From NCBI GenBank assembly GCA_022703585.1, contig JAKLDJ010000003.1:78250-142249 (forward strand): DNA of 64,000 nt. Reading direction: 5' to 3'. Positions 709 through 43,511 of the stretch are shown piece by piece; position 1 is the stretch's first letter, and every line of letters begins with the position of its first letter. The position numbers were made by a program, and so were the translations under genes. This DNA comes from Candidatus Omnitrophota bacterium (GTDB lineage Bacteria; Omnitrophota; Gorgyraeia; Zapsychrales; JAKLDJ01). The notes beneath the pieces are model-generated. The model ran no database searches, was not told where the DNA came from, and worked only from the letters and a program-made list of their open reading frames with translations.

Positions 709-2568
709 ATGAATATCTTTGCGCAATCGGCAGCTGCGGCACAGGACAGCAATCGGCACCTTAAAGGAATTTTGTTAAAACATATTCCGCTGATCGTGTT
801 TATCGTATCGGCAGGTGTGGGTGCTTCGCTGCTGGAAGGTATAAGCCTGGCTTTAGTGATACCGATTTTAGGCGACGCCGCCGGCCAAGTTACTTCTAGA
901 ATTCCGGCACCCTTTAACCAGCTTTGCGGGCTTTTTTCCGGATTAAGCCTCGCCGACAGAGTGCGTATTGTTGCCTTGCTGATCGTTGTTGTAACTGCCG
1001 TAAAAGGCATTCTGATTTTCTTCAATAACGCGATGGCGAATAAACTGCAGATCGAGATTGTCAAACACTTCCGCATGCTGTGTTTTAACCAATTCACGAA
1101 AGTCAGCATGAGCTACATCAATGATCAAAAAAGCGCGCATTTGCAGACCATTGCGGTTCATTATACGCTGTCGTTGGGAAGGATGTTTAATGCCATCGGT
1201 ATCGTGGTGCCGAAGTTTTTTACCGTCGTTATACTTCTTGTCATGCTGATGCTGTTGTCATGGCAATTGACGCTGGCTTCTTTGGTTTTAATCGGGATCT
1301 CTTCTTTGGTTTTACGCAGGATTGTCCGGAAGGCCAGCGCGGCGAGCCGAAAACTTACCGACGCCGACAAGGGCATCAATAGCGTTGTCCTTGATTCGCT
1401 TTTGGGAATGAAGGTAGTGCGTTTGTTTAACCGCGAAAAACATATGCGGGATAAGTTTGAAGAAGAGGTAGACCGTGTTAATGCGCATCTTTACCATGTG
1501 GTCAAGACCCATGGTTCGGTTCAACCGGTTTTTGAAATTACCGGTGTCGTCAGCCTTGCTTTTATTCTTATTCTCGGCTCCTTCATGCTTTTAAACGGCG
1601 CAAGCGGCGGGCTGGAAATTATTCTGACGTTCATCATTATTTATTTTCGTATCTTGTCGCCCAGTTTGGCCCTTAATACCGCCCGTGTTCAGGTCGCGAC
1701 TGAATTGCCGTATTACCAGCAGATTTGCCATTTTCTCGAATCGTTCGACAAGCCTTATATAACCAATGGTTCCCAGGATTTTCATAGCCTGTCGCAGGGA
1801 ATAGAATTTTGCGGCATACGTTTTCGGTACAACGAACAGCAATCTTTTGTCTTAAACAGTGTTTCCTTTTATTTGCCTAAAGGAAAGAAAATCGGGATTG
1901 TCGGGGTTTCAGGCTCGGGAAAGACGACGATATGCGAGCTATTGCTTCGTTTTTATGACCCGCAGCAGGGTGATATTCTGGTCGATGGCGCGGATTTAAA
2001 GAAATTTGATTTTTATTCCTGGCGCAGGCATATCGGTGTTGTCAGCCAGGATGTTTTTCTTTTTAATGATACCATTGGGGCCAACATCGGTTTTGCCAAA
2101 CCCGACGCCACAAAAGAAGACATTAAAAAAGCGGCGCAACAGGCCTACGCGGATGAGTTTATCGAGAAATTGCCCCAAGGCTACGAGACAATAATCGGCG
2201 AGCGCGGCGTGCGCTTGTCGGGCGGGCAGAGGCAGCGGCTGGCTATTGCCCGTGCCGTTGTTGTTGATCCGGAAATATTTATTTTCGACGAAGCGACTTC
2301 CGCCCTGGATACGGAGTCGGAAAAATATGTGCAGAAGGCCATTGAAACAGTAGGAAAAGGTAAAACGGTCATTACGATCGCCCATCGCCTTTCAACCGTT
2401 TCGGATTCCGACAAGATTATCGTGATGGATCAGGGCAGAATCGCGGAAGAAGGAACCCACGATCAGCTTTTAGGAAAAAACGGATTGTATACCAAGCTTG
2501 TCCAGATGCAGAACCTTGAATGGGAGATTAAGCAGCAGGAGAAAATAATCGCTTCTACGGCTGAATAA
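709..2568 (+). CDS. ABC exporter, fused permease-ATPase (MsbA/PglK-like type I exporter)
   Basis: N-terminal half has about 6 hydrophobic helices. C-terminal NBD has Walker A GVSGSGKTT, ABC signature LSGGQRQR, Walker B IFIFDEATSALD and H-loop IAHRLST. ATG at 709 lies 1 nt after the upstream stop. Confidence 0.85.
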   Translation: MNIFAQSAAAAQDSNRHLKGILLKHIPLIVFIVSAGVGASLLEGISLALVIPILGDAAGQVTSRIPAPFNQLCGLFSGLSLADRVRIVALLIVVVTAVKGILIFFNNAMANKLQIEIVKHFRMLCFNQFTKVSMSYINDQKSAHLQTIAVHYTLSLGRMFNAIGIVVPKFFTVVILLVMLMLLSWQLTLASLVLIGISSLVLRRIVRKASAASRKLTDADKGINSVVLDSLLGMKVVRLFNREKHMRDKFEEEVDRVNAHLYHVVKTHGSVQPVFEITGVVSLAFILILGSFMLLNGASGGLEIILTFIIIYFRILSPSLALNTARVQVATELPYYQQICHFLESFDKPYITNGSQDFHSLSQGIEFCGIRFRYNEQQSFVLNSVSFYLPKGKKIGIVGVSGSGKTTICELLLRFYDPQQGDILVDGADLKKFDFYSWRRHIGVVSQDVFLFNDTIGANIGFAKPDATKEDIKKAAQQAYADEFIEKLPQGYETIIGERGVRLSGGQRQRLAIARAVVVDPEIFIFDEATSALDTESEKYVQKAIETVGKGKTVITIAHRLSTVSDSDKIIVMDQGRIAEEGTHDQLLGKNGLYTKLVQMQNLEWEIKQQEKIIASTAE

Positions 2569-2598: not shown

Positions 2599-3660
2599 AT
2601 GAAGATTCAGATTGGAAAAAAACGGATCGGCGAAGGCGAGCCGCTCTATTTTATTGCAGACATTGCGGCTAATCATGACGGTGATCTTTCCCGGGCGCTT
2701 AAGCTGATTGACTTGGCGAAGGAGGCGGGGGCGGACGCGGCAAAATTTCAGAATTTTCAAGCCTCTAAAATCGTCAGTCGTAAAGGTTTTGAGGGCCTGG
2801 GGGGACAATTAAGCCATCAGGCCTCCTGGAAGAAATCAGTTTTTGAGGTCTATCAGGATGCCAGCCTCGATTTTCACTGGACTGAAAAGCTCAAAAAGCA
2901 TTGCGACGATGTCGGCATTGAATACATGACTTCTCCGTATGATTTTGAGTCGGTTGACCATGTTGATCCGTATGCAAACGTTTATAAAATCGGTTCTGGG
3001 GATATTACCTGGCTCGAGATTATTGAATACATCGGGCGAAAAGGAAAGCCGGTTATCTTGGCGACGGGAGCGGCGTCTCTGGAAGAAGTGAAACGCGCCA
3101 TGAAGGTTTTGGCCGGGGTCAATGACAGAATCGTCTTGATGCAATGCAATACCAATTACACGGGGAGCCCGGAAAACTTTCGGTATATCAATTTGAATGT
3201 CTTAAAAACGTATGCTGCCCTTTTTCCCAATACTATTCTGGGGTTATCGGACCATGCGCCGGGGCCTTCGGCGGTGCTGGGCGCGGTGGCTTTGGGCGCG
3301 CGGGTCTTTGAAAAACATTTTACCGACGATCGCGGGCGCGAAGGCCCGGACCACAAATTCTCCGTGATTCCTTGCGAGTGGAAAGAAATGGTCGCGCGTG
3401 CCGACGAGGTCTACAGAGCGCTTGGGGACGGCGTTAAGAAGGTCGAGGATAACGAGCAGCAAACTTCGATTGTACAAAAAAGGGCATTGCGTTATACGCG
3501 TGACTTAAAGAAGGGTGCGACTTTGACGGCGGCTGACCTGTTTCCGCTTCGTCCGATTCCGCCGGGGGCATTGCCGCCATACGAGATTAAAAATATTCTG
3601 GGCAAGAAATTACGCAGAGATGTTCAGGAGCAGGAATGTGTTATGAAAGGGGACGTTTAA
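2599..3660 (+). CDS. NeuB-family nonulosonic acid synthase (N-acetylneuraminate / pseudaminate / legionaminate synthase-like)
   Basis: N-terminus GEGEPLYFIADIAANHDGDL...AKEAGADAAKFQ matches the NeuB TIM-barrel motif, and the C-terminal segment is SAF/antifreeze-like. RBS AAGGATGG precedes the ATG. Confidence 0.85.
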   Translation: MKIQIGKKRIGEGEPLYFIADIAANHDGDLSRALKLIDLAKEAGADAAKFQNFQASKIVSRKGFEGLGGQLSHQASWKKSVFEVYQDASLDFHWTEKLKKHCDDVGIEYMTSPYDFESVDHVDPYANVYKIGSGDITWLEIIEYIGRKGKPVILATGAASLEEVKRAMKVLAGVNDRIVLMQCNTNYTGSPENFRYINLNVLKTYAALFPNTILGLSDHAPGPSAVLGAVALGARVFEKHFTDDRGREGPDHKFSVIPCEWKEMVARADEVYRALGDGVKKVEDNEQQTSIVQKRALRYTRDLKKGATLTAADLFPLRPIPPGALPPYEIKNILGKKLRRDVQEQECVMKGDV

Positions 3661-3661
3661 T

Positions 3662-4267
3662 ATGCTTAAAGGTCAGCAGATAGCTCTTTTGGCCATCGAA
3701 AGAGAGGATTTAAAGGCGCTTCGGGGCTGGCGCAACAATACCAAATTTAGAAAACATTTCAGGGAGTATCGTGAGCTGAATTCGGAATTGCAGGAAAAAT
3801 GGTACCGTGAATCCGTTCAGAATAATCCGGCGACGATGATGTTCGGCATACACCGGCTTTCGGACAATGAATTATTGGGTTGTTGCGGTTTGACCTATAT
3901 CCATCCGGTCTATCGGCATGCCGATTTATCGTTATATATCGGGTGGAAGGATGCTTATATCGACGACGAGGGTTATGCCCGTGAGGCCTGTGAGCTTCTT
4001 TTTGACTACGGATTTAAAGATCTTGGCCTGAATAAAATCTGGACCGAGATCTACGTTTTCGACACTAAAAAGAAAGAGCTTTATGACAGCCTTGGATTCA
4101 GGGTGGACGGTATTTTACGGCAGAACTATTTTCACGAGGGGCGGTTTTGGGATTCCTATATTTTGTCCTTGCTGGTTAGTGACTGGAGGCAGAAGAATAG
4201 CAGTCTTTCGGGGAGAAAGAAATCTCTCGTCTCGAACAAAAGGAGAAAAAATGTCCGAAAAATATAA
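3662..4267 (+). CDS. GNAT-family N-acetyltransferase (RimL/PseH-like)
   Basis: About 200 aa. The C-terminal block EGYAREACELLFDYGF...NKIWTEIYVFDTKKKELYDSLGF resembles the Acetyltransf_3 core. ATG lies 1 nt after the neuB-like stop. Confidence 0.6.
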   Translation: MLKGQQIALLAIEREDLKALRGWRNNTKFRKHFREYRELNSELQEKWYRESVQNNPATMMFGIHRLSDNELLGCCGLTYIHPVYRHADLSLYIGWKDAYIDDEGYAREACELLFDYGFKDLGLNKIWTEIYVFDTKKKELYDSLGFRVDGILRQNYFHEGRFWDSYILSLLVSDWRQKNSSLSGRKKSLVSNKRRKNVRKI

Positions 4268-4955
4268 TGCCGTAGCAATTATTACTGCGCGGGGAGGCAG
4301 CAAAAGGATCCCGCGAAAGAATATCCGGATGTTCTGCGGCCATCCGATTATCTGGTATTCCATCCAGGCGGCTTTGGATTCGGGCTGTTTTGGCGAGATC
4401 ATGGTTTCTACCGACGACAACGAGATTGCCAATATCGCCAAAGAAATGGGTGCCAAGGTGCCGTTTATGCGCTCTAAGAAAAATTCAGACGACGATAGCA
4501 CGACGGTGGATGTCTTGGAGGAAGTGCTTACGGAATATAAAAAGAAGGGAAAGATCTTTGATTTCTTTTGCTGTCTCTATCCGACGGCACCGTTTGTATC
4601 GGGGGGCCGTTTAAGAGAAGGCTGTGAAGCCTTGGTGTCTTCCAAAGCGGACAGCGTGCTTCCTATTGTTCGTTTTAGCTATCCCGTATGGCGGGGATTA
4701 AAGGTTGAAGACGGCAGGATAAAAATGTGGTGGCCCGAAAATTATAATAAAAAGTCTCAAGACTTGCCGCCTGTTTTTCATGATGCCGGCCAGTTTTATG
4801 TGATGCGGACAGAAAGCTTGCTTAAGCAGAAACAGCTTTATGCCCAAAACTCGATAGGGCTCGAGATTCCGGAATCGCAGTGCCAGGATATCGACAGTGA
4901 TGAAGATTGGAAACTGGCTGAAATGAAGTATCAGTTGCTTAACAGAAAAAGTTAA
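4251..4955 (+). CDS. CMP-nonulosonic acid synthetase (acylneuraminate cytidylyltransferase family, NeuA/PseF-like)
   Basis: N-terminus AIITARGGSKRIPRKNI is the hallmark cytidylyltransferase motif. I chose the internal ATG at 4251, preceded by RBS AAAGGAGAAAAA, rather than the long upstream extension of ORF 4083. Confidence 0.8.
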   Translation: MSEKYNAVAIITARGGSKRIPRKNIRMFCGHPIIWYSIQAALDSGCFGEIMVSTDDNEIANIAKEMGAKVPFMRSKKNSDDDSTTVDVLEEVLTEYKKKGKIFDFFCCLYPTAPFVSGGRLREGCEALVSSKADSVLPIVRFSYPVWRGLKVEDGRIKMWWPENYNKKSQDLPPVFHDAGQFYVMRTESLLKQKQLYAQNSIGLEIPESQCQDIDSDEDWKLAEMKYQLLNRKS

Positions 4956-4988: not shown

Positions 4989-5987
4989 ATGGAATTTAAA
5001 GAGACTGATATCCGCCCCGATCGCTTGATGCAGGGTCAAATCAAACATACCAATGCTGACCGGCGAAGGCTTTTATCGCATAAAGGCAAATTTGTCTCCA
5101 TCCCCTGCCCAGCCTGTAATTCCAGGAAGGCTCGAATAGCTTTTAAAAAGGGCGGGCTAACCTATAAGGCCTGTTTGGACTGTGAGACTTTATATGTCAA
5201 TCCCAGGCCAACGGCAGCGATTTTAGAAAAGTGTTATGCTGAGTCCGAAGTTTATGCTTATTGGAATAAATATATTTTTCCGCAATCCGATGCTGCGCGG
5301 CGCAAGAATATTATTTGTCCCCGCGTAGACCGCCTTATTGAGATTTGTCGACGATACGCTATTAAGAATGCAACGTTGCTGGAAGTCGGATCAGCCTTCG
5401 GGACATTTTGTGAAGAGGCGAAGTCTCGCGGATTCTTCAGTCGCGTCATCGCTGTTGAGCCGACTCCTGACTTGGCCGAGACCTGCCGCCGTAAAGGGCT
5501 AGAGGTGATCGAGAAGCCTATCGAGCAGATCAAATTTCAACCCGGGACAATCAATGTTGTGGTCAGCTTTGAAGTCATCGAGCATTTGTTTTCACCTCGG
5601 GACTTTTTACGTAGCTGTGCGGCTGTTCTTTCTCCCGGCGGTTTACTGGTGTTGTCCTGTCCTAGTTGTAAAGGGTTCGACATTGTTACATTGCAGTCCC
5701 TTTCTGCTTCGATAGACCATGAACATTTGAATTATTTTAACCCTAATTCGCTTCCTCATCTAGTGGAACGATGCGGGTTTGAAACACTGGAAGTCCTGAC
5801 TCCCGGCGTGCTGGATGCGGAGATTGTCCGCAAAAAAATCCTGTCGGGTGAATTTGACGTGTCGGAAGATCCGTTTTTAAAACAAATTTTAATTGATGAC
5901 TGGGGACGGGTTTCTCAAAAATTCCAGAAGTTTTTGTCGGACAACTTGCTGTCGTCGCATATGTGGCTTGTTGCCCGCAAGAAATAA
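4989..5987 (+). CDS. class I SAM-dependent methyltransferase with N-terminal 4-Cys zinc ribbon (TcaB9/TylC3-like architecture)
   Basis: CPACNS...CLDCETLYVNP gives a CxxC...CxxC ribbon, followed by LLEVGSAFGTF as a motif-I-like glycine-rich loop. Confidence 0.7.
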   Translation: MEFKETDIRPDRLMQGQIKHTNADRRRLLSHKGKFVSIPCPACNSRKARIAFKKGGLTYKACLDCETLYVNPRPTAAILEKCYAESEVYAYWNKYIFPQSDAARRKNIICPRVDRLIEICRRYAIKNATLLEVGSAFGTFCEEAKSRGFFSRVIAVEPTPDLAETCRRKGLEVIEKPIEQIKFQPGTINVVVSFEVIEHLFSPRDFLRSCAAVLSPGGLLVLSCPSCKGFDIVTLQSLSASIDHEHLNYFNPNSLPHLVERCGFETLEVLTPGVLDAEIVRKKILSGEFDVSEDPFLKQILIDDWGRVSQKFQKFLSDNLLSSHMWLVARKK

Positions 5988-6064: not shown

Positions 6065-7198
6065 TTGAACTATTGTACGCAATGCCTTCAGCCGGATACC
6101 CGGCCCAATATTAAGTTTAATGCGCAAGGGGTTTGCCCGGCGTGTGAATACTGGTCCACGCTCAACGTCATGGACTGGGATGAGAAACGAAAGATTTTGC
6201 TGGAGATTTGTGATTTTGGCATTGCTCATAAATCATGGGGCTATGACTGTATTATCGGAGTGAGCGGCGGTAAGGATAGCACCCGGCAAGCGTTGTTTGT
6301 CAGGAATGTGCTGAAGATGAACCCGCTTCTGGTGTGCTGCACCTATCCTCCCGATCAGGTTTCTGACCGGGGAGCGTACAATATCCAAAACTTGATTTCT
6401 CGCGGATTTAATACGGTTATCGTCGGTCCGGCTCCGCAGACCTGGAAAAAGAATATGCTTAACGGCTTTTATAAATACGGAAACTGGCAAAGGTCTACGG
6501 AGCTCGCGCTATTTACGAGTGTCCCTCGCTTGGCGATTGCCTACCAGATTCCCTTGATCTTCTGGGGGGAGAATCCTGCTCTAATCTTAGGAGAGCTTGG
6601 TGTGAGATCCAACGGATACGATGGCAATCAAATGAAGTGGGCCAACACACTGGCCGGCGGAGATCCGTCTTGGTTGTGTGTCGACGGGATAACGAAGAAA
6701 GATGTCCTATGTTACAGTTATCCGGCGGATGAGGAAATGACCCGTGCCGGTTTAAGGATCATCTATTTAAGTTACTTTTGGAAAGTATGGTCAAGGCTTG
6801 AGAACGGGATGCTTGCTGCCGTTCACGGCCTGGATGTCCGGGATGATCATTCAGAAACCATCGGCGATATACTCGGCGTCGAGGCATTGGACGAGGACTG
6901 GATTACTGTTAATCAAATGATCAAATTCCGAAAATTCGGATTTGCCAGGGTCACGGAACTTGTCTGTGAAGAGATACGTTTTGGCCGGATGAAACGGGAA
7001 GAAGGTATTCCGTTGATAGAAAAATATGACGGGAAATGTTCGGATAAGCTCGTCGGGAATTTCTGCGATTATCTGGGGATATCTATCGAAGAGTTCTGGA
7101 GAGTGGCGGATTCCTATACGAATAAAGAAATATTTGAAAAAGACAAAAAGGGTTCCTGGAAATTAAAGTACCCAGTCGGTGTCTGCCATGCACGGTAA
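6065..7198 (+). CDS. N-acetyl sugar amidotransferase (WbuX/PseA/WbpG family, PP-loop ATP pyrophosphatase)
   Basis: N-terminus YCTQCLQPDTRPNIKFNAQGVCPACEY is the family-typical Cys cluster. PP-loop SGGKDS is present. TTG start with RBS AGGGGAGAAG. Confidence 0.8.
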   Translation: MNYCTQCLQPDTRPNIKFNAQGVCPACEYWSTLNVMDWDEKRKILLEICDFGIAHKSWGYDCIIGVSGGKDSTRQALFVRNVLKMNPLLVCCTYPPDQVSDRGAYNIQNLISRGFNTVIVGPAPQTWKKNMLNGFYKYGNWQRSTELALFTSVPRLAIAYQIPLIFWGENPALILGELGVRSNGYDGNQMKWANTLAGGDPSWLCVDGITKKDVLCYSYPADEEMTRAGLRIIYLSYFWKVWSRLENGMLAAVHGLDVRDDHSETIGDILGVEALDEDWITVNQMIKFRKFGFARVTELVCEEIRFGRMKREEGIPLIEKYDGKCSDKLVGNFCDYLGISIEEFWRVADSYTNKEIFEKDKKGSWKLKYPVGVCHAR

Positions 7199-7811
7199 AG
7201 TCGCGATTATTGATTATGGGGTCGGCAATGTTCATTCGGTTGCCTGCGCCCTGTCATTTCTCGGATATAGAAATATGACGACGCGGGATCCCAAAATCAT
7301 CCGCCAGGCAGATGCCTTGATTTTGCCCGGGGTTGGCGCCTTCGGCCAGGCGATGGCCAATTTAAAGAAATTTGACCTGTTGGAACTTTTAAACGGAGAG
7401 GTCCTCCGTAAGGGAAAACCGATTCTGGGGATTTGTTTGGGTATGCAGATTCTAGGAAACAGCTCGGAGGAGTCGCCGGGACATAAGGGGCTTGGCTGGA
7501 TCGATTTTGATGTGGTCAGCATACCGCAATCGCCACAATTAAAAGTCCCGCATGTAGGATGGAATACGCTGCGGGTGGAGAATCAAAAAGATTTATTCAC
7601 AGGGCTAGAAGAAGAACCGCATTTCTATTTTGACCACAGTTATTACGCTGATTGTTCTAATGGTTATACGGTCGCCCGCTGTCATTATGGCGCGATGATG
7701 CCGGCAGTTGTCGTCAAGGGCAATATCACCGGGGTCCAGTTTCATCCCGAAAAAAGCCAGAGAAACGGCTTGAAATTATTCAGAAATTATTTTAATCATC
7801 TGGGGGTCTGA
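7179..7811 (+). CDS. HisH-like class-I glutamine amidotransferase (WbuY-type; glycan amidotransfer, not histidine biosynthesis)
   Basis: VAIIDYGVGNVHSV, the catalytic Cys in GICLGMQIL, and GVQFHPEKS are present. The gene is flanked by amidotransferases, with no other his genes nearby. Confidence 0.85.
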   Translation: MSAMHGKVAIIDYGVGNVHSVACALSFLGYRNMTTRDPKIIRQADALILPGVGAFGQAMANLKKFDLLELLNGEVLRKGKPILGICLGMQILGNSSEESPGHKGLGWIDFDVVSIPQSPQLKVPHVGWNTLRVENQKDLFTGLEEEPHFYFDHSYYADCSNGYTVARCHYGAMMPAVVVKGNITGVQFHPEKSQRNGLKLFRNYFNHLGV

Positions 7812-7812
7812 T

Positions 7813-8685
7813 TTGCTTAAAAAACGGCTTATAGCAACATTGATCGTGCGGGAGGGGATCGTTGTGCAAAGCATCAATTTCCGCAGGTATTTGCCCGTGG
7901 GCAAGCCCGCGATTGCCATCGAATTCTTAAATTCATGGGGTATTGACGAAATTGTCCTTATCGATATTACGGCATCCAAGGATCACTCCCGGAAGAAATA
8001 TGATTTTATCGAAGAGATTACCCGTAAGTGTTTCGTTCCCTTGACTGTAGGGGGCGGTATCAGTTCGGTCGACGACATCCGCGCGCTGCTGGGTTTTGGG
8101 GCAGACAAAATATCGGTCAATTCGTATTGTCTGGCTCATCCGGAATTTATTAGTGAAGCGGCGAAGATCTTTGGCAATCAATGTATTGTGGTAGCTATCG
8201 ATGCCGTTGGCTCTTCCCCGTCGGACTATCGTGTGTACAACGCGGCAAAAGGGGCGGTTATGGATGTCTCTCCGGTTGATTGGGCAAGAAAAGCGGAAGC
8301 GATGGGGGCGGGCGAAATCTATATAACATCGGTCGATCGCGACGGATCAAAAAAAGGTTTTGACCTCGGGCTTATTGATTTGGTCGCCCGCAGCGTGAAG
8401 ATCCCGGTTATTGCCAGCGGCGGGGCGGGAAAATCATCCGATGTTCTCGATGTTTTCTGCCGGACGAACGCCTCTGCGGTTTCAGCTGCCAATTTCTTTC
8501 ATTTCTCGGAGCACAGTGTCATTGTCACAAAGTCAATCTTGAGGAGCAAGGGAGTAGATATTCGTTTAAACACGCACGCCGATTACGAAAAAAGCCCCTT
8601 CGGGGATGATTTTCGTTTAAAGAAAAGGTCAGAGGCCTATCTCGGGGACCTGCTTTTTGAGAGGATCGAGAAAGAGATCATATGA
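7813..8685 (+). CDS. HisF-like cyclase subunit (WbuZ-type)
   Basis: IATLIVREGIVVQS...DEIVLIDITAS and two G-rich phosphate-binding loops are present. TTG start 2 nt after the hisH-like stop, preceded by GGGGG. Confidence 0.85.
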   Translation: MLKKRLIATLIVREGIVVQSINFRRYLPVGKPAIAIEFLNSWGIDEIVLIDITASKDHSRKKYDFIEEITRKCFVPLTVGGGISSVDDIRALLGFGADKISVNSYCLAHPEFISEAAKIFGNQCIVVAIDAVGSSPSDYRVYNAAKGAVMDVSPVDWARKAEAMGAGEIYITSVDRDGSKKGFDLGLIDLVARSVKIPVIASGGAGKSSDVLDVFCRTNASAVSAANFFHFSEHSVIVTKSILRSKGVDIRLNTHADYEKSPFGDDFRLKKRSEAYLGDLLFERIEKEII

Positions 8686-9938
8686 TTTACTGCAAGAGAT
8701 GTCTATATCCGGAAAATCACCCGCTCCATCTAATATTTGATAGCGAAGGGGTCTGTTCCGGGTGCCGCGTTCATGAGGAAAAAGATGTGCTGGATTGGCA
8801 TGAACGGGCGCAGAACCTGGGACGTATTTTTGATGATTACCGAAGCCGTTCGGGGAAGAATTATGACTGCATCATTCCGGTTAGCGGTGCCAGGGATTCC
8901 TATTTTATCGTTCATACGGTTAAAAACGTATTTAAAATGAATCCGTTACTGGTTTCCTATAATCAGCATTACAACACGGATATCGGCATACGGAATTTAG
9001 CGTACTTACGGATCAAGTTTAATTGTGATTATTACCAGTTGACCGTATCTCCGGAAATCGTCAAGAAGATCACGCGCGCGACCATGCGAAAACGGGGCAG
9101 TATCTACTGGCACTGCATTGCCGGCCAGACGGTTTACCCGGTGCAAATGGCGGTTCAATTTAAAATCCCCTTAATTGTCTGGGGGGCGCATCAGGGGGTC
9201 GACCAAGTCGGAATGTTCTCTCATTTGGATGAAGTTGAGATGACGAGGAAATACCGCAAAGAACATGACCTGATGGGGCTCGAGGCCGAGGACCTGGTTG
9301 ACGAATTCGATTTTATAGAAGAAAAAGATATGGCTCCGTTCGTTTACCCGGACGACAAGGAAATTGAGAAAGTCGGAGTGAGAGGGATCTACCTTAATAA
9401 TTACATACGGTGGGATTCAAAAAAACAGCATGAAGACATGATTCGGCTCTACGGATACGAAACCGCTTTGCAGACCAGGACATTTGATAATTATAACGAC
9501 ATCGACTCTTTTAATTATTCCGATGTCCACGACCATATCAAGTTTCTAAAATGGGGTTATGGCAAGGTCAATGACCATGTTGCCAGGGAGATTCGTCTTA
9601 AACGGATGACCGCGCAAGAAGGCGTAGAAAAGATCGATGCCTATTTATACCGGCCCCCTAAAAATCTTTCTAAATTCTTAGAATGGATCGGGATGACCGA
9701 AAGGGCATTTAATTTTGTGATCGACCAACACCGCAGTCCGAGCGCATGGAAGAGAAACGCGAGATGGGAATGGGAGTTAAAGTCGCGTATCACAAAAGAA
9801 CTAATCGATGATTCGTCTAGGACGGTCGCTCTAGACAAAAAAGAAACTTGCGACTTTGTTTTGACGTCTTCACGAAAACCGGGATATGTCGAGGATAAGT
9901 ATATCTTAATCGGGAAAGGTGCTGTAGGGAACGCTTAA
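8682..9938 (+). CDS. N-acetyl sugar amidotransferase, second paralog (WbuX/PseA family)
   Basis: N-terminus YCKRCLYPENHPLHLIFDSEGVCSGCRVHEE and PP-loop SGARDS are present. ATGA overlap with the hisF-like stop. Confidence 0.8.
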   Translation: MIYCKRCLYPENHPLHLIFDSEGVCSGCRVHEEKDVLDWHERAQNLGRIFDDYRSRSGKNYDCIIPVSGARDSYFIVHTVKNVFKMNPLLVSYNQHYNTDIGIRNLAYLRIKFNCDYYQLTVSPEIVKKITRATMRKRGSIYWHCIAGQTVYPVQMAVQFKIPLIVWGAHQGVDQVGMFSHLDEVEMTRKYRKEHDLMGLEAEDLVDEFDFIEEKDMAPFVYPDDKEIEKVGVRGIYLNNYIRWDSKKQHEDMIRLYGYETALQTRTFDNYNDIDSFNYSDVHDHIKFLKWGYGKVNDHVAREIRLKRMTAQEGVEKIDAYLYRPPKNLSKFLEWIGMTERAFNFVIDQHRSPSAWKRNARWEWELKSRITKELIDDSSRTVALDKKETCDFVLTSSRKPGYVEDKYILIGKGAVGNA

Positions 9939-9942
9939 TCTT

Positions 9943-12087
9943 ATGCTTGAAACGGCGAACATTTATGTGGAATATTTGACCGTCTGGAATTGGCTTAAAG
10001 TTATTCTTCCGGCGCTGCGTCTTTACGCCCGCGAACAATCCGGGCGCCAATGCCGTTGCTATATTTTTGACAGCACGCCTGTCGCATTGTGGCTGGCCAG
10101 GCATTGGGGTCGGATAGAGGGATTTTTGGTTGAAAAAATAGACTTTCAAATAGCGGATGTCAAGGATGAGCAGGGGTTATCGGGCTTGTCTTGGGTTTGT
10201 CACAAGAATCCCGTTGAAATCCAAAGGATGATCCTCAATAATCCTGATTTTATATCCTTTACCGGCGGTCTCGACCCCCATTCCTTTGCAAAGGCATATT
10301 TGGCAAAATTACCTGTTATTTATTACAGCCTTATCGGTCCTCAGAAATACAGCGAAACAGGACACGTGGCATTCATGATTCAGATCGTGCATTGGCATCA
10401 GCGTCGGCTGGGCCATCATTCTTTGCGTGTCGATCTCTATGTTATCCCAAGGCTCTGGATGAAAGAGCTTCAAGAATACGCCAAATCCTATGGCGGGCGC
10501 TTGTGCGCGCTGGGGCCAGTGAAACTTTGGCGCTGGAAATGGGCAGAGTATAAAAGCAGGCTGAGCAATGTAAACCTTAATTTGATTAAGGCGCTTGTGC
10601 GGCACAAAATCTTTGAGTTCAGCGTCAAGCAGGGGCGGGTCGAGAACAAGTTTTATTTTAAGACTGATATTGTTCGGATGTTAACCGAAAGTTACGGGCA
10701 ATTTAATCTGGACGATCCGCAGTGCCATAGCGATGTCTTTTATGCCGATGAAAAAGCCCTGCGCCTGAAAGATATACTCCTCTATTTTAACTCAGTTACT
10801 GATCCTATTGATGAGAAGAAGTACGCGCTCCTTCAAAAACACGACCTTGCCGCTGTGGCTTTGACACCGCAATCATGCCTTGTTGACCCGGCGCTGGTTC
10901 CGGTGTTCCGTGCCGACGCAAAAGTCTCCATCGATGTCCCAAGCTATCCGGCTAAGGCGAGTCGGGAGATCAAGTCGCTGGCGGTGTCATTGGCTCACTA
11001 TAATAAGTTACGCAGCTATTGGCGTCAGTTCCTGCAGCGCTACAACATCAAGCTTTACACAAGCTGGCTTAACTGCGAGGCGAACACGATGGCCATTGCG
11101 GATGCGCTTACCGATGTCGGCGGGATCTCTTCGATCTACCAGCGTTCCTACAAGCCGGGTGTTTCTCCTCAATTAGCCGTGGGAACGGATATCATTTTTG
11201 GATTTTCCAACAGGGATTGTGAACTTCAGGCAGGGAGCGGTTCGCAGTTTCGTTATTACGTAACTGTCGGATATCTGGGGGACAATCGTTTTGATGTTTT
11301 GCGCCCCAGGGCTTCGCAGATCCGCAATCAATTATTAACGCACGGTGCTAAACACATTATCGCTTATTTCGACGAGAATACGCTGGATGATGGAAGATGG
11401 TTCCACGGGCACAAGATGGCGCAGGATAATTACCGTTTTTTGTTGGAAAAATTATTATTTAATTCTGAGCTGGGCCTTGTTTTAAAACCTAAGGTCCCCG
11501 GTACGTTACGCCGCAGATTAGGCGATATCAACAGGCTTTTGGTCGAGGCTGAAAAGACTGGGAGATGTTTCATGTTCGGGGAAGGGAGCATTTTCGGCTC
11601 TTATCCGCCTGCCGCCGCGGCCTTAGCGGCTGACATTGCGATTCATGACCAGTTGGCGTGCGGCACGGCAGGATTGGAAGCGGCTCTTGCCGGCATTCCC
11701 ACTTTGTTAATTGACCTCGAAGGGTGGTCTTTTAGCCCGTTATATGGGTTGGGAGATCATGTTGTTTTCACGGATAGAGACAGCGCTTGGCGTGCCTGTG
11801 AAGCGTATTTTAAGGATCCCTTGGCTCATCCCAGAGCGGGCAACTGGTCATCAATGATTAACGAATTTGACCCTTTTCATGATGGACGGGCGGCGCAGAG
11901 GATGAGCCGTTATTTAAAAGATCTTTTAGAGGGTTTGCGTGCGGGAGAAAAACCAACGGAGGTAATGGAAAAAGTTGCTGAACGCTATGCCCGTCAATGG
12001 GGCAAAGACAAGGTTCAACGAGGACCAAGATACGATGTTCATCTTTCTGTCGGAGAAAGTCTCAATCGTAAGGAGGTACGTCTGTGA
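9943..12087 (+). CDS. hypothetical 714-aa protein, possible GT-B-like/capsule-biosynthesis-like glycosyltransferase
   Basis: Long ORF with no hallmark motif I can name. The C-terminal segment GTAGLEAALAGIPTLLID...VVFTD resembles a GT-B C-terminal Rossmann half. Confidence 0.5.
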   Translation: MLETANIYVEYLTVWNWLKVILPALRLYAREQSGRQCRCYIFDSTPVALWLARHWGRIEGFLVEKIDFQIADVKDEQGLSGLSWVCHKNPVEIQRMILNNPDFISFTGGLDPHSFAKAYLAKLPVIYYSLIGPQKYSETGHVAFMIQIVHWHQRRLGHHSLRVDLYVIPRLWMKELQEYAKSYGGRLCALGPVKLWRWKWAEYKSRLSNVNLNLIKALVRHKIFEFSVKQGRVENKFYFKTDIVRMLTESYGQFNLDDPQCHSDVFYADEKALRLKDILLYFNSVTDPIDEKKYALLQKHDLAAVALTPQSCLVDPALVPVFRADAKVSIDVPSYPAKASREIKSLAVSLAHYNKLRSYWRQFLQRYNIKLYTSWLNCEANTMAIADALTDVGGISSIYQRSYKPGVSPQLAVGTDIIFGFSNRDCELQAGSGSQFRYYVTVGYLGDNRFDVLRPRASQIRNQLLTHGAKHIIAYFDENTLDDGRWFHGHKMAQDNYRFLLEKLLFNSELGLVLKPKVPGTLRRRLGDINRLLVEAEKTGRCFMFGEGSIFGSYPPAAAALAADIAIHDQLACGTAGLEAALAGIPTLLIDLEGWSFSPLYGLGDHVVFTDRDSAWRACEAYFKDPLAHPRAGNWSSMINEFDPFHDGRAAQRMSRYLKDLLEGLRAGEKPTEVMEKVAERYARQWGKDKVQRGPRYDVHLSVGESLNRKEVRL

Positions 12088-13127
12088 CCGATGTTCCTTT
12101 TAAGAAGTATTCCAAATCGTCAGGTTTTTATACAAAAACGCATAAGGAATTTTTTACGGAAAATGAATCCCTTTTAGCCAAGATAGAAGAACACAATCGG
12201 ATTTACCGGGAGCAGCCGGTCCGGGAGTATTGTAAATTATGCCATGAAAAGCTGCCGACTCTTAAGGATCTCGTTTCGCATGATATTCCTTACTTTTTTT
12301 GTTCCAATTGCGGGCATTTCAACGGAGCCTACGAAGATACCAAGGAATTTGTAAAAAAGATTTATCTCGAAGACACCAATTATTCGGATCACTACGTGAA
12401 TGCTGAATTTGATTCGCGAACCAAGAATATTTATGTCCCTAAAGTAGATTTTCTCGCAGAGAATCTTCCTCCGGGTATCCGGCCAAGGGTTCTTGATATA
12501 GGTTGTGGCAGCGGCAATTTTGTATACGCCTGTTTACAAAGGGATATTGAAGCGGTGGGGATAGACTTTTCGGCCAAGGCCGTTGACTTTGGAAATCAAC
12601 AAATACGGCAACGATTAAATAAATCTCCGCTGACACTGGTTTCGGAAGAGACATTCTTTCAGTCTATTGTCGGGTCGGATGCCAGTGTCTTAAGCGCTAT
12701 CGGGGTCCTTGAGCATTTGCGCGAACCGGATAAGCTTTTTGATGCGTTTGAAAAGAGCCGGATGACCTATTTGTTTTATTCTGTGCCGATGTTCTCTGCT
12801 TCGGTGATTTTTGAGAATGCCTTTCCGGCAGTATTCCCCAGACAGCTCGGAGGGGACCACACGCATTTATTTACCGAATCTTCGGTCGAATGGATGCATA
12901 AAAACAAGAATTTGTGTTCGCTTGCGGAGTGGCGATTTGGGACGGGTGTTATGGATTTGTATAGAAGCCTTTTGATAACCCTCAAGAAGAACGGTGCATC
13001 GGACAAGCTTCTTAAAATCTTTGAAGAGGGGTTTGCCCAAAAGATTGATGCCTTACAGGCTGTTCTTGATAAGAATAACTTTTGCTCGGAAATCCATTGC
13101 CTGGTAAAGAAAGAAAGGATGTCATGA
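12084..13127 (+). CDS. class I SAM-dependent methyltransferase with N-terminal zinc ribbon
   Basis: CKLCHEK...CSNCGHF gives CxxC...CxxC, and motif I is VLDIGCGSGNF. GTG start overlaps the upstream stop; RBS AAGGAGG. Confidence 0.7.
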   Translation: MTDVPFKKYSKSSGFYTKTHKEFFTENESLLAKIEEHNRIYREQPVREYCKLCHEKLPTLKDLVSHDIPYFFCSNCGHFNGAYEDTKEFVKKIYLEDTNYSDHYVNAEFDSRTKNIYVPKVDFLAENLPPGIRPRVLDIGCGSGNFVYACLQRDIEAVGIDFSAKAVDFGNQQIRQRLNKSPLTLVSEETFFQSIVGSDASVLSAIGVLEHLREPDKLFDAFEKSRMTYLFYSVPMFSASVIFENAFPAVFPRQLGGDHTHLFTESSVEWMHKNKNLCSLAEWRFGTGVMDLYRSLLITLKKNGASDKLLKIFEEGFAQKIDALQAVLDKNNFCSEIHCLVKKERMS

Positions 13128-14455: not shown

Positions 14456-15205
14456 ATGGATTCATCGTCTGCTCATCTAGAGGAGCACTATACATCTCTC
14501 GGGAATTTAAAGTCTGATTTTAGAAATAAGAATCTTTACGAATTGATTAGTTCCTGCCTGGATAAAAAAACACTCCTGGATATCGGATGCGGGGCGGGCC
14601 ATTTCTTAAATATTGCCCACGAGAAAGGGTTCCAAGTTTCCGGAGTAGAGCCTGATCAAAAGCTCATAGATCTTTCTCGGAAATTATATCCCGGAAATCT
14701 TAATATTACGAATTGTCCCGCTGAGCAGATCGACACCATCCGGGGAAAATTTGACAACATTACGGTGATTGATGTGCTCGAGCACGTTGAAGATGATATG
14801 TCTGTTTTGAAAAAAATAAAAGGATTATTGGCAGAAGACGGCCGGTTAATTATTTTGGTTCCCTGTCATCCTCATCTTTACGGAAAGCGGGATAAGGCCA
14901 TGGGCCATTACCGCCGTTATTCAAAGAGCAATCTTGTTGATAAATTGGAAAAGAACGGATACCGGATCCTAAAACTGCGTTTTTGGAATATGCTCGGCTA
15001 TTTACCCTATTTAATTTCTGAAAAGGTATTGCAGCGCGAAATCAGTTCTTCCTTTCGCGAAAATAAGAGCGGCAGCCCGCTTCATAATGCGGTCAGCAAG
15101 GTATTGAATTTATGGTTTAAATATGCGGAAAATGCAGTCAACTTTGGTTTTGGTCTGAGCCTGATATGCGTGGTAGTCCCCAGAGAAACAAAGGAAGAAT
15201 ATTAA
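14456..15205 (+). CDS. class I SAM-dependent methyltransferase
   Basis: Motif I TLLDIGCGAGHFL, with acidic post-I and motif II/III spacing. RBS AAGGAAGGGGG. Confidence 0.75.
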   Translation: MDSSSAHLEEHYTSLGNLKSDFRNKNLYELISSCLDKKTLLDIGCGAGHFLNIAHEKGFQVSGVEPDQKLIDLSRKLYPGNLNITNCPAEQIDTIRGKFDNITVIDVLEHVEDDMSVLKKIKGLLAEDGRLIILVPCHPHLYGKRDKAMGHYRRYSKSNLVDKLEKNGYRILKLRFWNMLGYLPYLISEKVLQREISSSFRENKSGSPLHNAVSKVLNLWFKYAENAVNFGFGLSLICVVVPRETKEEY

Positions 15206-16540
15206 ATGCCCAAAATACTACTTATCAATCCTCCTTGCTCTGCTCTGTATTCAAAACTCAGAAGAATTTCTCCCATCTATCCCCCGCTGGGTTTGTTGTA
15301 TCTCGCGTCTTTCTTGGAGAAAAATAACGTTGACGTGGCTTTCTATGACGGCCTGGCAGAAGGCAGATCTGTATCTGATGTTGAAAAGATATTATCGGTA
15401 TCCGATGCCGAGATTGTCGGAATCACCTGCACCACGTCTACCTTAAATGAGGCTATTCAAATTGCAACCTACGCTAAACATTGGGGGAAAAGGACATTTC
15501 TCGGGGGCCCGCATGTCACCGCGCTGCCCAAATTGACTTTAGAAAAGCATCCTTGTTTTGATGTGGGTGTCATCGGAGAAGGAGAAATCACTCTCCGGGA
15601 ATTAATCGCAGGCAAGCCGTTAAATGAAATCGACGGTATTGTCTATCGCCACGACGGCGAAGTGGTCATGAATAAAGCAAGGGAGGCGATTGAGGACCTG
15701 TCCAGCTTACCGCATCCGGCCAGGCATCATTTGAAAAATCAGCTATACCAGCCCGGCATTAAGGAATACGCGCGTGCCAATAACTTCTTTACGCTGATTA
15801 CCGCGCGGGGGTGTCCCTTTCAATGTATCTTTTGTGCCTCAAAAGCGATTTGGGGCTGTCGTGTGCGAGAAAGGTCGCTTGAGGATATTTTCCTCGAGCT
15901 GGAAGAACTTAAGGGAATGGGCATGACCTATCTGAGAGTTCTTGATGACACATTCACGTTAAAAAAGAGCAGAGTGCGTGAATTCTGCAAATATATAAAG
16001 AATTATAATATCCACTGGAGTTGTAATGCGCGAGTGGACAGAATGGACTCTGAAATAATCCATATGCTAAAAGACAGCCATTGTGTTTTTGTCGAATACG
16101 GCATTGAAAGCGGCAATCAAAAGATATTGGATATCATGAAAAAAGGCATCACGCTCGAGCAAATCCGGCAAGCCGCGCGAGTGACTAAAGAGGCAGGAAT
16201 GCGATTCAACTGTTCCTTTATCGTCGGCAACATAGGAGAAACGTTAAAGACCGCCGAGGAAACGGTGCAGTTAGCCAAGGAATTGAATCCGGATTTTGCC
16301 CAGTTTAACATGCTGACGCCTTATCCCGGGACCGAAGTATATTCCATCTGTAAGGAAAAAGGATATTTGATCAAAGATTTTGAAGACTATCGAAACCCAA
16401 AATATCAGGATCCGGTGATTGCGCTTCCGGGCTTACCGGCCAAGGAGCTCAAGAAATTGCTTATGCATGCTTACCGCTATTTTTATTGGCGGCCGCAAGC
16501 TATTTTTAAATTGCTGTACCATACGATTTTCTTTAAGTAG
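15206..16540 (+). CDS. cobalamin-binding radical SAM enzyme (class B radical SAM, likely methyltransferase)
   Basis: The N-terminus is a B12-binding-like Rossmann domain (KILLINPP...LGLLYLASFL). Radical SAM cluster motif CPFQCIFC (CxxxCxxC). Confidence 0.85.
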   Translation: MPKILLINPPCSALYSKLRRISPIYPPLGLLYLASFLEKNNVDVAFYDGLAEGRSVSDVEKILSVSDAEIVGITCTTSTLNEAIQIATYAKHWGKRTFLGGPHVTALPKLTLEKHPCFDVGVIGEGEITLRELIAGKPLNEIDGIVYRHDGEVVMNKAREAIEDLSSLPHPARHHLKNQLYQPGIKEYARANNFFTLITARGCPFQCIFCASKAIWGCRVRERSLEDIFLELEELKGMGMTYLRVLDDTFTLKKSRVREFCKYIKNYNIHWSCNARVDRMDSEIIHMLKDSHCVFVEYGIESGNQKILDIMKKGITLEQIRQAARVTKEAGMRFNCSFIVGNIGETLKTAEETVQLAKELNPDFAQFNMLTPYPGTEVYSICKEKGYLIKDFEDYRNPKYQDPVIALPGLPAKELKKLLMHAYRYFYWRPQAIFKLLYHTIFFK

Positions 16541-16562
16541 AACGATTTTAGGGAAAGAGGAA

Positions 16563-20149: not shown

Positions 20150-21640
20150 ATGAAGAAATTCAGAGTTTTGTTTTTATATCCTAACGGAAAACTGATGAAT
20201 CCTCCTCCGATTGCGATCGGGATATTTACGGCATTATTAAGGGAGAATGGTTTTGAGGTGGATTTGTTTGACACCACGCTTTATTCCGAACCCGGCAGCG
20301 TAGGATCGGATGATGCCAAGAAGGAAAATCTGCAGGTCAGGCCTTTTGATTACGGTTCGCGGGGCGTTAAGTTAAAAGAACGGCCTATCGCGCCGGATCT
20401 GCTTAAAAAAATTGAGGAATTCCGTCCTGATCTAATAGCGATATCAATTCTAGAATGCACCTATTCGGCGGCGCGCGCCATGCTGCAGGCTATTGAGAAG
20501 ACAGACATTCCCGTTATCGCCGGAGGGGTTTTTCCGACCTTCGCGGCCGAGAAAATGCTTATGCATAAAAATGTCCGTATGGTGTGCCGGGGCGAAGGAG
20601 AAGGGGCGTTGGTGGAGGTATGCCAGCGGATGGCGGCAGGCAAAGATTGTGATGACGTCGAGAATCTTTGTGTCAAAAGAAACGGGCGGCTGGTCCAGAA
20701 CCGGATCAGAAAACCCGTTGATATTAACAGCCTTCCGGTGTCAGATTTTAGTCTTTTTGAAGAGGCAAGGTTTTTCCGCCCTATGGCGGGAAAGGTTTAC
20801 AAAACCATTCCCATTGAGACAAACCGGGGATGTCCCTACACATGTTCTTTTTGTAACTCACCGTCCACGTCCGAAATGTATAGGGAGAATGGCTGCAAAT
20901 TCTTTAGGACAAAGAGCATGACGGCGATTCAGCGAGAGCTACGGCATCTTAAAAAGCAATGGGATGCCGAATATGTGTATTTCAGCTCGGACAATTTTCT
21001 GGTGAACTCGGATGCCGAATTTAATCAGTTCCTTGAAATCTACAAGGAGATTAATCTTCCCTTTTGGGTACAATCCCGCCCGGAAACGATCACTGAATAT
21101 CGGGCGAAGAAACTGAAAGAGATCGGCTGTCACAGGATTTCTCTGGGATTAGAGCATGGCAATGACGAGTTCAGGAAGAAGGTCCTTAAGAAGAAATTCG
21201 ATAATGAGGTAATGATCAGGGCCTCAAAAATCCTTGCCGATGCCGGGATACCGCTTACGGTCAATAATATGATCGGGTTTCCCGATGAAACCAGAGAGCT
21301 TATTTTTGACACCATAGAACTTAACCGCCAGCTGGTTACCGACACGATGAATTGCGCGGTCTTTGCTCCGTTTCACGGGACACCGCTGCAGAAGTTGTGC
21401 GTCGAACGCGGATACGTATCGGAAGACACGATTTTCGGTTCCATTAATGTCGACATACCCCTTAACATGCCCCAGCTGACCCAAGAGGACATCCGGGGGA
21501 TACGCCGGACATTTTCGCTGTATGTGCGTTTGCCTAAGAGTAATTGGCCGCAGATTCGAAGAGCCGAGAAATTCGACGAGGAAGGAAACCGCATTTTCGC
21601 CGAACTGAGCAAAATGTACCAGGAAAAATATTTTAAGTAG
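20150..21640 (+). CDS. cobalamin-binding radical SAM enzyme (second paralog)
   Basis: N-terminal B12-binding-like domain (RVLFLYPNG...IAIGIFTALL) and radical SAM motif CPYTCSFC. Confidence 0.85.
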   Translation: MKKFRVLFLYPNGKLMNPPPIAIGIFTALLRENGFEVDLFDTTLYSEPGSVGSDDAKKENLQVRPFDYGSRGVKLKERPIAPDLLKKIEEFRPDLIAISILECTYSAARAMLQAIEKTDIPVIAGGVFPTFAAEKMLMHKNVRMVCRGEGEGALVEVCQRMAAGKDCDDVENLCVKRNGRLVQNRIRKPVDINSLPVSDFSLFEEARFFRPMAGKVYKTIPIETNRGCPYTCSFCNSPSTSEMYRENGCKFFRTKSMTAIQRELRHLKKQWDAEYVYFSSDNFLVNSDAEFNQFLEIYKEINLPFWVQSRPETITEYRAKKLKEIGCHRISLGLEHGNDEFRKKVLKKKFDNEVMIRASKILADAGIPLTVNNMIGFPDETRELIFDTIELNRQLVTDTMNCAVFAPFHGTPLQKLCVERGYVSEDTIFGSINVDIPLNMPQLTQEDIRGIRRTFSLYVRLPKSNWPQIRRAEKFDEEGNRIFAELSKMYQEKYFK

Positions 21641-43458: not shown

Positions 43459-43511
43459 TATTATTTTAGCCGATTGAGTTTTGCCTGCATATGAGATACA
43501 GCGCTGAAATG

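Follow-up and report, generated by a model that had tools for sequence, protein, structure and literature searches.

Two kinds of described methyltransferase come closest to the enzymes considered here. The sugar C-methyltransferases TcaB9, KijD1, MtmC and TylC3 belong to a class defined by three parts, an N-terminal PF08421 domain (Methyltransf_13), a class I methyltransferase dependent on S-adenosylmethionine (SAM), and a C-terminal PF08484 domain of about 150 residues (Methyltransf_14). The C-terminal domain holds the deoxythymidine diphosphate (dTDP)-sugar in crystal structures. The other kind is encoded beside amidotransferases. In Campylobacter jejuni, the gene of a WbuX-type amidotransferase (ptmG) lies next to that of a methyltransferase (ptmH), and the two enzymes act one after the other, PtmG giving Leg5Am7Ac and PtmH then Leg5AmNMe7Ac (bioRxiv 10.64898/2026.04.20.719630). 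Formation of Leg5AmNMe7Ac in C. coli VC167 needs ptmH (PMC6003734), Cj1325 is listed as an acetimidino-N-methyltransferase (PMC3025981), and for ORF 8 of Legionella pneumophila (lpg0769) N-methylation of legionaminic acid at its 5-acetimidoyl group has been reported (PMC3766260). Here we describe three genes from a 64,000-nucleotide stretch of the genome of a Candidatus Omnitrophota bacterium (contig JAKLDJ010000003.1; the whole stretch is hereafter the window). We call them M1 (4989-5987), M2 (12084-13127) and M3 (the N-terminal half of 39184-40875). They are paralogous two-module enzymes, each with a putative zinc ribbon of four cysteines before a class I SAM-dependent methyltransferase that has a helical lid, and they come from three separate, well-conserved families, each tied to a different glycan module, and they look like ordinary glycan-tailoring methyltransferases.

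A preliminary description of this DNA had singled out the same three open reading frames (ORFs), and all of them are present where it placed them, with the CxxC pairs and the motif I sequences that it gave:

4989-5987, + strand: M1, ribbon-methyltransferase of 332 residues (Pfam Methyltransf_23, 72.8 bits; AlphaFold predicted local distance difference test, pLDDT, 94.5)
5106-5183, + strand: M1 four-cysteine (Cys4) ribbon, C40xxC43, 18 residues, C62xxC65
5376-5402, + strand: M1 SAM-binding motif I, LLEVGSAFG, residues 130-138, with G134 and G138 invariant in the family
5721-5726, + strand: M1 E245-H246, which pairs in the alignment with TcaB9 E224-H225 (the catalytic residues there); all family members have H246
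12084-13127, + strand: M2, ribbon-methyltransferase of 347 residues
12231-12311, + strand: M2 ribbon, C50xxC53, 19 residues, C73xxC76
12489-12515, + strand: M2 motif I, VLDIGCGSG, at residue 136
39184-40098, + strand: M3, N-terminal half of its gene, with ribbon and class I methyltransferase including lid and closing strand (pLDDT 90.1)
39202-39342, + strand: M3 ribbon, C7xxC10, 39 residues, C50xxC53
39502-39528, + strand: M3 motif I, LLDIGCAAG, at residue 107
40099-40875, + strand: C-terminal half of the M3 gene, a linker and a glycosyltransferase family 2 (GT2) domain of the polyprenyl-phosphate glycosyl-synthase type

M1 consists of a conserved N-terminal helix, the Cys4 ribbon, a long helical linker, the class I SAM-methyltransferase, a helical lid and a closing strand. 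In the AlphaFold model the ribbon has beta-strands at residues 48-54, 57-62 and 68-70, and the 60 residues after the methyltransferase core form three helices and the closing strand of the Rossmann sheet. Both M1 and M2 have just 60-80 residues after the core, modelled or aligned as helical lid and closing strand. The start of M2 overlaps the stop of the preceding ORF, of 714 residues, by 4 nucleotides. The preliminary description had each gene begin with the ribbon and gave the ribbon a spacer of 15-25 residues. The first statement fits M3, where the ribbon starts at C7, and fails for M1 and M2, in which a conserved leader of 35-50 residues precedes it; the second fits M1 and M2 (18 and 19 residues) and fails for M3 (39).

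Conservation of the ribbon is high in all three families. Its four cysteines are invariant in the M1 family alignment (44 of 44 homologues) and in M2 (38 of 38), and the 42 homologues of M3 all have C10, C50 and C53, while at least 90% of them have C7. The pattern CxxC-(10-45)-CxxC occurs in only five of 50 window ORFs, namely M1, M2, M3 and two WbuX amidotransferases. Given such conservation in homologues and the rarity of double CxxC pairs among window ORFs, the ribbon is not a chance pattern. All three proteins score above the Pfam gathering thresholds of Methyltransf_23, Methyltransf_11 and Methyltransf_12 (for Methyltransf_23, with a cut-off of 27 bits, M2 reaches 39.9 and M3 90.6 bits). 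Profile alignment with hhalign joins M1 to M3 with a probability of 99.8% (E 9e-30, 273 columns) and M1 to M2 with a probability of 97.8% (E 7e-13, 290 columns). Both CxxC knuckles are in register, and the homology runs from the first CxxC to the last beta-strand in all three families. Judged by these profiles, M1, M2 and M3 are homologous along the full shared module and have one architecture, which bears out the common architecture proposed earlier.

The same architecture had been taken as characteristic of nucleotide-sugar C-methyltransferases, and this did not hold up. PF08421 and PF08484 have no match in whole M1, M2 or M3 at E<=0.1, nor in their isolated N- and C-terminal pieces at E<=10, where only unrelated zinc-ribbon families appear (E about 0.01-1); the two domains are also absent from the other window ORFs scanned against Pfam. 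With 332 and 347 residues, against 416 in TcaB9, M1 and M2 have no room for the C-terminal domain of about 150 residues. In NCBIfam all three match models of the UbiG, BioC and UbiE type far below cut-off (for UbiG, TIGR01983, 33.7, 21.4 and 46.9 bits for M1, M2 and M3, cut-off 102.95), and public annotations of such proteins read UbiG-like and 'ribosomal protein S27E'. The matches are therefore generic or UbiG-like only, with no C-methyltransferase C-terminal domain, which is the outcome that the preliminary description had named as refuting its reading. Because this third domain is missing, we consider it likely that M1, M2 and M3 are not members of the TcaB9 family of dTDP-sugar C-methyltransferases.

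The likeness to TcaB9 and TylC3 is real for the first two domains, and most clearly for M3. In a Foldseek search of the Protein Data Bank (PDB) with the M3 N-terminal model, MtmC, KijD1 and TcaB9 account for 18 of the 19 best matches, at a TM-score of 0.58-0.63, a root-mean-square deviation of 5-6 A and about 315-337 columns; generic methyltransferases reach 0.42-0.50 over about 220-250 columns. A profile limited to residues 1-100 of the M3 family finds the N-terminal domain of MtmC (residues 11-92) as best PDB match, with both CxxC pairs in register, although this match is weak (E only 0.063). The M1 model aligns with TcaB9-class structures over about 330 columns at a TM-score of 0.48, and generic methyltransferases score as well. 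With its single sequence, the best PDB match of M1 is TcaB9 (E 1.5e-6), over the core only (M1 131-272 against TcaB9 112-253), and H199 aligns with TcaB9 H181 in addition to the Glu-His dyad noted above, all three M1 residues being conserved in the family; M2 and M3 retain only the histidine of the dyad. With the M1 family profile, the generic structures 3cc8 and 1vlm come ahead of TcaB9, and the match is confined to the methyltransferase core. The fold of M1, M2 and M3 appears to be the counterpart of the first two domains of TcaB9, KijD1 and MtmC. Our reading is that the ribbon plus methyltransferase forms a widespread two-module unit, to which the TcaB9 class adds a sugar-nucleotide-binding domain. 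A Cys4 ribbon before a class I methyltransferase does not by itself identify a sugar C-methyltransferase; what identifies one is the PF08484 domain, which is missing here.

The genes around M1 point to a different role. They run in the order NeuB/PseI-like, PseH-like GNAT, PseF, M1, WbuX, HisH, WbuZ and a second WbuX:

2599-3660, + strand: NeuB/PseI-like synthase upstream of M1 (Pfam NeuB, 238.5 bits)
3662-4267, + strand: PseH-like GNAT upstream of M1
4251-4955, + strand: PseF cytidylyltransferase (TIGR03584, 294.4 bits, cut-off 205.7)
6065-9938, + strand: acetamidino-forming module beside M1 (WbuX, HisH, WbuZ, second WbuX), made up of the next four genes
6065-7198, + strand: WbuX, first copy, adjoining M1 (TIGR03573, 258.9 bits, cut-off 203.2)
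7179-7811, + strand: HisH (TIGR01855, 230.5 bits)
7813-8685, + strand: WbuZ-like (TIGR03572, 264 bits, below the cut-off of 299.7)
8682-9938, + strand: WbuX, second copy (TIGR03573, 326.7 bits, cut-off 203.2)

The M1 family has 3440 relatives, and the best 120 of these 3440 are 56-70% identical to M1 (Omnitrophota, Chloroflexi, Deltaproteobacteria). In species-representative genomes, members at about 50-66% identity occur in Cyanobacteria, Leptospira, Bacteroidia, Myxococcota, Acidobacteria and Planctomycetota, and also in Patescibacteria, Methanoregulaceae and Woesearchaeota. Anabaena cylindrica UHCC 0172, Calothrix brevissima NIES-22 and Leptospira soteropolitanensis are cultured organisms that carry an M1 homologue. 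No NCBIfam model names the family. We scanned 85 M1 loci, two of them duplicates, which leaves 83 that are non-redundant. WbuX is directly adjacent to M1 on the same strand in 60 of the 83 (upstream in 55, downstream in five) and lies elsewhere in the flank in another 15, so that 75 loci have it within the flank; of the eight loci without it, five have upstream sequence shorter than 600 bp. Most often the genes run HisH-WbuZ-WbuX-M1. NeuB was found within 8 kb in 50 of the 85 loci scanned. Because direct adjacency to WbuX (60 of 83) exceeds even this looser association with NeuB, M1 has a closer link with the amidotransferase than with the nonulosonic-acid synthase, and we regard its pairing with an acetamidino-forming amidotransferase as near-obligate.

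The window differs somewhat from the usual arrangement in having two WbuX paralogues and one HisH/WbuZ pair, that is, a canonical HisH-WbuZ-WbuX unit with an extra WbuX between the unit and M1. The copy that adjoins M1 here is not the usual partner, since in 52 of the 60 loci the adjacent WbuX resembles the second paralogue (8682-9938). The extra copy might allow two amidinations on one sugar.

From the adjacency of WbuX and the precedent of PtmG/PtmH and ORF 8, we tentatively propose that M1 N-methylates the amidine nitrogen that WbuX, HisH and WbuZ make on a pseudaminic (Pse)-type nonulosonic acid. M1 would then serve as accessory partner to the amidotransferase, the enzyme that turns the N-acetyl group of a sugar into an acetamidino group. 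The sugar in this case would be a nonulosonic acid of the pseudaminic type, formed by the products of the adjacent NeuB, GNAT and PseF genes. M1 would transfer the methyl group from SAM to the amidine nitrogen, with the invariant His246 (together with Glu245) as a possible base, to give an N-methylacetimidoyl sugar. We also considered that M1 might activate the acetamide as a methyl imidate for attack by ammonia, and rejected this because WbuX matches the N-acetyl sugar amidotransferase family, which is ATP-dependent. Most WbuXYZ systems (e.g., those of E. coli O145 and P. aeruginosa O5) presumably function without such a methyltransferase, which counts against the methyl-imidate idea as well. 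A search of complete E. coli genomes with an Enterobacteriaceae M1 homologue, aimed at an O-antigen of known structure, gave no match, and tblastn of M1 against plasmids returned distant generic methyltransferases only.

M2 belongs to a smaller family (529 relatives at about 50-59% identity) with a related setting. Among 49 loci, metagenomic or genomic, whose flanks extend for 5 kb or more, NeuB occurs in 25, a PseF-like cytidylyltransferase in 19 and an RmlD-like reductase in 16, and a block PseF-M2-RmlD-like-NeuB-GT2 recurs. Fluviispira multicolorata has the order CTP_transf_3-RmlD-like-NeuB-GNAT-M2. In protein P0141 (JGI 3300072015, on an 11.5-kb contig), a pseudaminic acid cytidylyltransferase domain is fused to an M2-family methyltransferase. 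Because of the PseF and NeuB neighbours and this fusion, M2 is predicted to be another nonulosonic-acid tailoring enzyme. It would act as a second tailoring methyltransferase on the same nonulosonic acid or on its form activated with cytidine monophosphate (CMP).

The P0141 fusion also adjoins two NeuB genes and an ABC transporter resembling that of the window (709-2568). The pairing of RmlD-like and NeuB genes that recurs beside M2 homologues is seen at the window start as well, hinting at an unusual reduced nonulosonic acid pathway. There the NeuB gene is preceded by:

24-707: RmlD-like reductase, truncated by the window start
709-2568: ABC exporter

M3 is built differently, as a protein of 563 residues whose GT2 domain occupies residues 329-486 (Pfam Glycos_transf_2, 73 bits). 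The GT2 half resembles AglJ, PpgS and dolichyl-phosphate hexose transferase (NCBIfam TIGR04182, NF058614 and NF041391), in each case below cut-off. At least 120 homologues, 53-70% identical, keep the fusion of ribbon, methyltransferase and GT2, and almost all of those that are named come from Omnitrophota. At both of the other loci that we looked at, L088 (4064-7686) and L089 (4118-7689), the M3-type fusion lies directly downstream of a DUF2079 membrane protein of 630-640 residues. In the window this position is taken by a different, putative membrane protein:

37491-39170, + strand: hydrophobic protein of 559 residues directly upstream of M3, multi-pass by eye, in the position of DUF2079 elsewhere

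This protein has no Pfam or NCBIfam match. M3 may methylate a sugar in concert with the fused GT2, a domain of the kind that attaches sugars to polyprenyl phosphate, and the membrane protein upstream would then probably transfer the sugar outside the cytoplasm. By analogy, the two together look like a two-step decoration system in the style of GtrB or ArnC with a built-in methyltransferase. The two-gene units of L088 and L089, from other Omnitrophota, sit among unrelated housekeeping genes outside any glycan cluster, which suggests a housekeeping envelope modification there.

The preliminary description had also noted RmlB and a short RmlA in the window and suggested that dTDP-4-keto-6-deoxyglucose could feed one of the ribbon enzymes. 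Of the two genes, RmlB is confirmed and the RmlA-like gene stays below the cut-offs:

28605-29624, + strand: RmlB (TIGR01181, 431.9 bits, cut-off 365.1)
29558-30367, + strand: short RmlA-like nucleotidyltransferase (TIGR01207/TIGR01208, about 225-230 bits, below the cut-offs)

Located at 28.6-30.4 kb, together with an epimerase/reductase, a GT4 and an acyltransferase, the two genes have no ribbon-methyltransferase next to them: the distance is 16-23 kb to M1 and M2 and 9 kb to M3. M1 and M2, unlike the rml genes, are inside the nonulosonic-acid module. At M2 loci tblastn found RmlA in one of 49 and 'RmlB' matches in 14 of 49, which at that threshold could be any sugar 4,6-dehydratase. The suggested feeding of a ribbon enzyme is not borne out by these positions or by the conserved neighbours, which are WbuX, HisH and WbuZ, PseF and NeuB, or GT2 with a membrane protein.

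It is against this background that a role in carbon methylation has to be judged. One version is that one or more of the three enzymes are C-3 methyltransferases of the TcaB9/TylC3 type, producing a branched-chain deoxyhexose from the dTDP-4-keto-6-deoxyglucose of the RmlA-like enzyme and RmlB. The genuine RmlB, the structural matches of M3 and M1 and the alignment of M1 with TcaB9, including the dyad, would suit it. We nevertheless find it highly improbable, given that PF08421 and PF08484 stay unmatched even at the loosest threshold, that a C-terminal domain would find no space, and that the neighbourhoods consist of nonulosonic-acid and amidotransferase genes (M1, M2) or GT2 and a membrane protein (M3) rather than rml genes; the scarcity of RmlA concerns M2 loci, rml genes having not been searched in M1 loci. 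In another version M1 or M2, as a two-domain ribbon enzyme, C-methylates a 4-keto-6-deoxy-N-acetylhexosamine intermediate of the pseudaminic or legionaminic acid pathway by way of a TcaB9-like Glu-His base, yielding C-methyl nonulosonic acids. The kinship with sugar 3-C-methyltransferases and the conservation of E245-H246 and H199 in M1 agree with this, as do the 4-keto intermediates through which we take these pathways to pass. Yet the nucleotide-sugar-binding domain is missing, M2 and M3 have the histidine of the dyad but not the glutamate, and M1 tracks WbuX, which we take to act late, and not the early dehydratase and aminotransferase steps. Branched-chain nonulosonic acids are, to our knowledge, a class of sugar without a description, and we think this reaction very unlikely; if it did occur, such sugars would be expected from the thousands of genomes that carry M1 or M2 homologues. 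For any C-methylation in the cluster, two B12-binding radical SAM proteins (listed below) are more plausible candidates.

The earlier caveat that the enzymes could equally be N- or O-methyltransferases was appropriate. M1 could be an O-methyltransferase whose target is a hydroxyl group, either on the nonulosonic acid or on a sugar next to it in the glycan, its co-occurrence with WbuXYZ then reflecting shared tailoring of one sugar. The weak NCBIfam similarity to O-methyltransferases (UbiG, BioC) and a histidine base suited to deprotonating a hydroxyl speak for this, but M1 adjoins WbuX more than it accompanies NeuB, and we take WbuX enzymes to serve chemically different N-acetyl sugars, so that the amidine would be the shared feature that explains the linkage. 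We regard O-methylation as rather unlikely. Quinone or other small-molecule methylation without a glycan role, as in the automated names '2-polyprenyl-3-methyl-5-hydroxy-6-metoxy-1,4-benzoquinol methylase' and 'Ubiquinone biosynthesis O-methyltransferase' and the weak UbiG matches, is effectively refuted by UbiG scores of 21-47 bits against a cut-off of 103, by consistently glycan-related neighbourhoods and by the fusion of M3 to a glycosyltransferase.

Several observations weigh against amidine N-methylation by M1 and the wider picture of glycan tailoring drawn here. Three M1 loci (L009, L031 and L037) have room for WbuX, yet none was detected. A 'pseudaminic acid biosynthesis-associated methylase' (TIGR03587) stands beside HisH-WbuZ-WbuX in about 20 of the 83 M1 loci (about 24%), just upstream of HisH, which gives methylase-HisH-WbuZ-WbuX-M1; examples are:

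3915-5012 of L037: TIGR03587 methylase (154.8 bits, cut-off 112)
4710-5339 of L002: TIGR03587 methylase, with about 18 further M1 loci likewise

This methylase is absent from the window, and M1 fails to match its model. Because the two co-occur at about a quarter of M1 loci they are not redundant and have distinct roles, and N-methylation of the amidine could belong to the TIGR03587 enzyme, with another target left for M1, which would favour the O-methyltransferase alternative. The Methanococcus maripaludis methyltransferase encoded beside aglXYZ, which we take to O-methylate a different sugar, leans the same way. In addition, the closest solved structures are C-methyltransferases, with the TcaB9 dyad retained in M1, and for M3 the 559-residue protein shows no BLAST similarity to the DUF2079 neighbours of M3 homologues. 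With the domains, homology, motifs, missing C-terminal domain and neighbourhoods in hand, and with substrates and target atoms proposed from them, we hold the whole picture for the three enzymes with moderate confidence.

The window genes described above lie in a single large surface-glycan cluster that spans the window from position 1 to about 54 kb, almost throughout on the + strand. The + strand holds nearly all genes, and the guanine-cytosine skew is positive along all 64 kb (0.09-0.14), so the region may lie on the leading strand. The cluster holds six SAM methyltransferases, three with and three without ribbon. The latter and other genes of possible relevance to sugar modification are:

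14456-15205: class I methyltransferase of 249 residues without ribbon
24459-25454: NanM-type putative sugar O-methyltransferase without ribbon (TIGR04371, 77 bits, cut-off 44)
34883-36280: second methyltransferase-GT2 fusion, with a class I methyltransferase and without ribbon
15206-16540 and 20150-21640: the two B12-binding radical SAM proteins (HpnJ/BchE/PhpK-like, below cut-offs)
23513-24448: radical SAM/SPASM protein inside the glycan cluster
18312-20117: carbamoyltransferase inside the glycan cluster

Three proteins of 600-714 residues (9943-12087, 16419-18278 and 21663-23480) have few or no family matches, and 21663-23480 alone weakly matches 'surface carbohydrate biosynthesis protein' and BFO_1060 glycosyltransferase models. 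They may be nonulosonic-acid transferases, because in L009 and L031 the M1 homologues are likewise followed by proteins of the BFO_1060 type. The sole minus-strand block of the cluster (40894-45590) has an MBOAT acyltransferase (41965-43458) between two unannotated proteins and resembles polysaccharide O-acylation systems. Wzy_C/O-antigen-ligase-like genes are found at three places (26624, 48556 and 51881).

A large family without a curated name that is almost always encoded with an acetamidino-forming amidotransferase, as M1 is, provides a testable lead. If M1 does N-methylate amidines, the modification would be far commoner than the few characterised cases suggest, and N-methylacetimidoyl sugars would be common in more than ten phyla, archaea and candidate-phyla bacteria among them, and not just in Legionella and Campylobacter. 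M1 would in that case add a fourth, widespread component to WbuX, HisH and WbuZ, a reading that we see as possible but short of probable. Amidine N-methylation alters the epitopes that antibodies recognise in Legionella, and in Campylobacter modifications of legionaminic acid are believed to aid the colonisation of chickens.

Compared with the TcaB9 class, the three enzymes have in common an N-terminal four-cysteine domain followed by a class I SAM-methyltransferase. M3 has a ribbon spacer of about 39 residues, as in MtmC; structures of the class are the best Foldseek matches of M3 and among the best of M1; and M1 keeps the histidine and Glu-His positions of the active site. Unlike that class, M1, M2 and M3 are without a PF08484 domain and without a PF08421 match; M1 and M2 are about 70-85 residues shorter, and M3 is fused to GT2 in place of the C-terminal domain. 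M1 and M2 also have the short spacer of 18-19 residues and a conserved leader helix before the ribbon, and the context of all three is nonulosonic acid, amidotransferase or GT2, not the dTDP-deoxysugar pathways of antibiotics. With generic methyltransferases of the Methyltransf_23 and Methyltransf_11 families (e.g., PDB 3cc8, 1vlm and 2p7h, and UbiG) they share motif I, an 'EHL' motif and a histidine that follows beta-5, all on a common core fold, and these are their best PDB sequence matches when family profiles are used, but none of the solved examples has the ribbon, the long helical linker or the conserved lid at the C-terminus.

The TIGR03587 methylase resembles M1 as a small SAM-methyltransferase beside HisH-WbuZ-WbuX and nonulosonic-acid genes, and differs in its length of about 200 residues and in being without a ribbon. 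Likened by gene context, PtmH (Cj1325/6) and ORF 8 are, as M1 is, SAM-methyltransferase genes beside a WbuX/PtmG-type amidotransferase and nonulosonic-acid genes, and the reaction proposed for M1 is the one assigned to those enzymes. Among the M1 matches listed there was no named homologue of PtmH (UniProt Q0P8T2, or PtmH of C. coli VC167) or lpg0769. The sugar made in the window is probably of the Pse type, PseF being above its cut-off, and not of the Leg type, and the M1 family is far more widespread than Campylobacter and Legionella.

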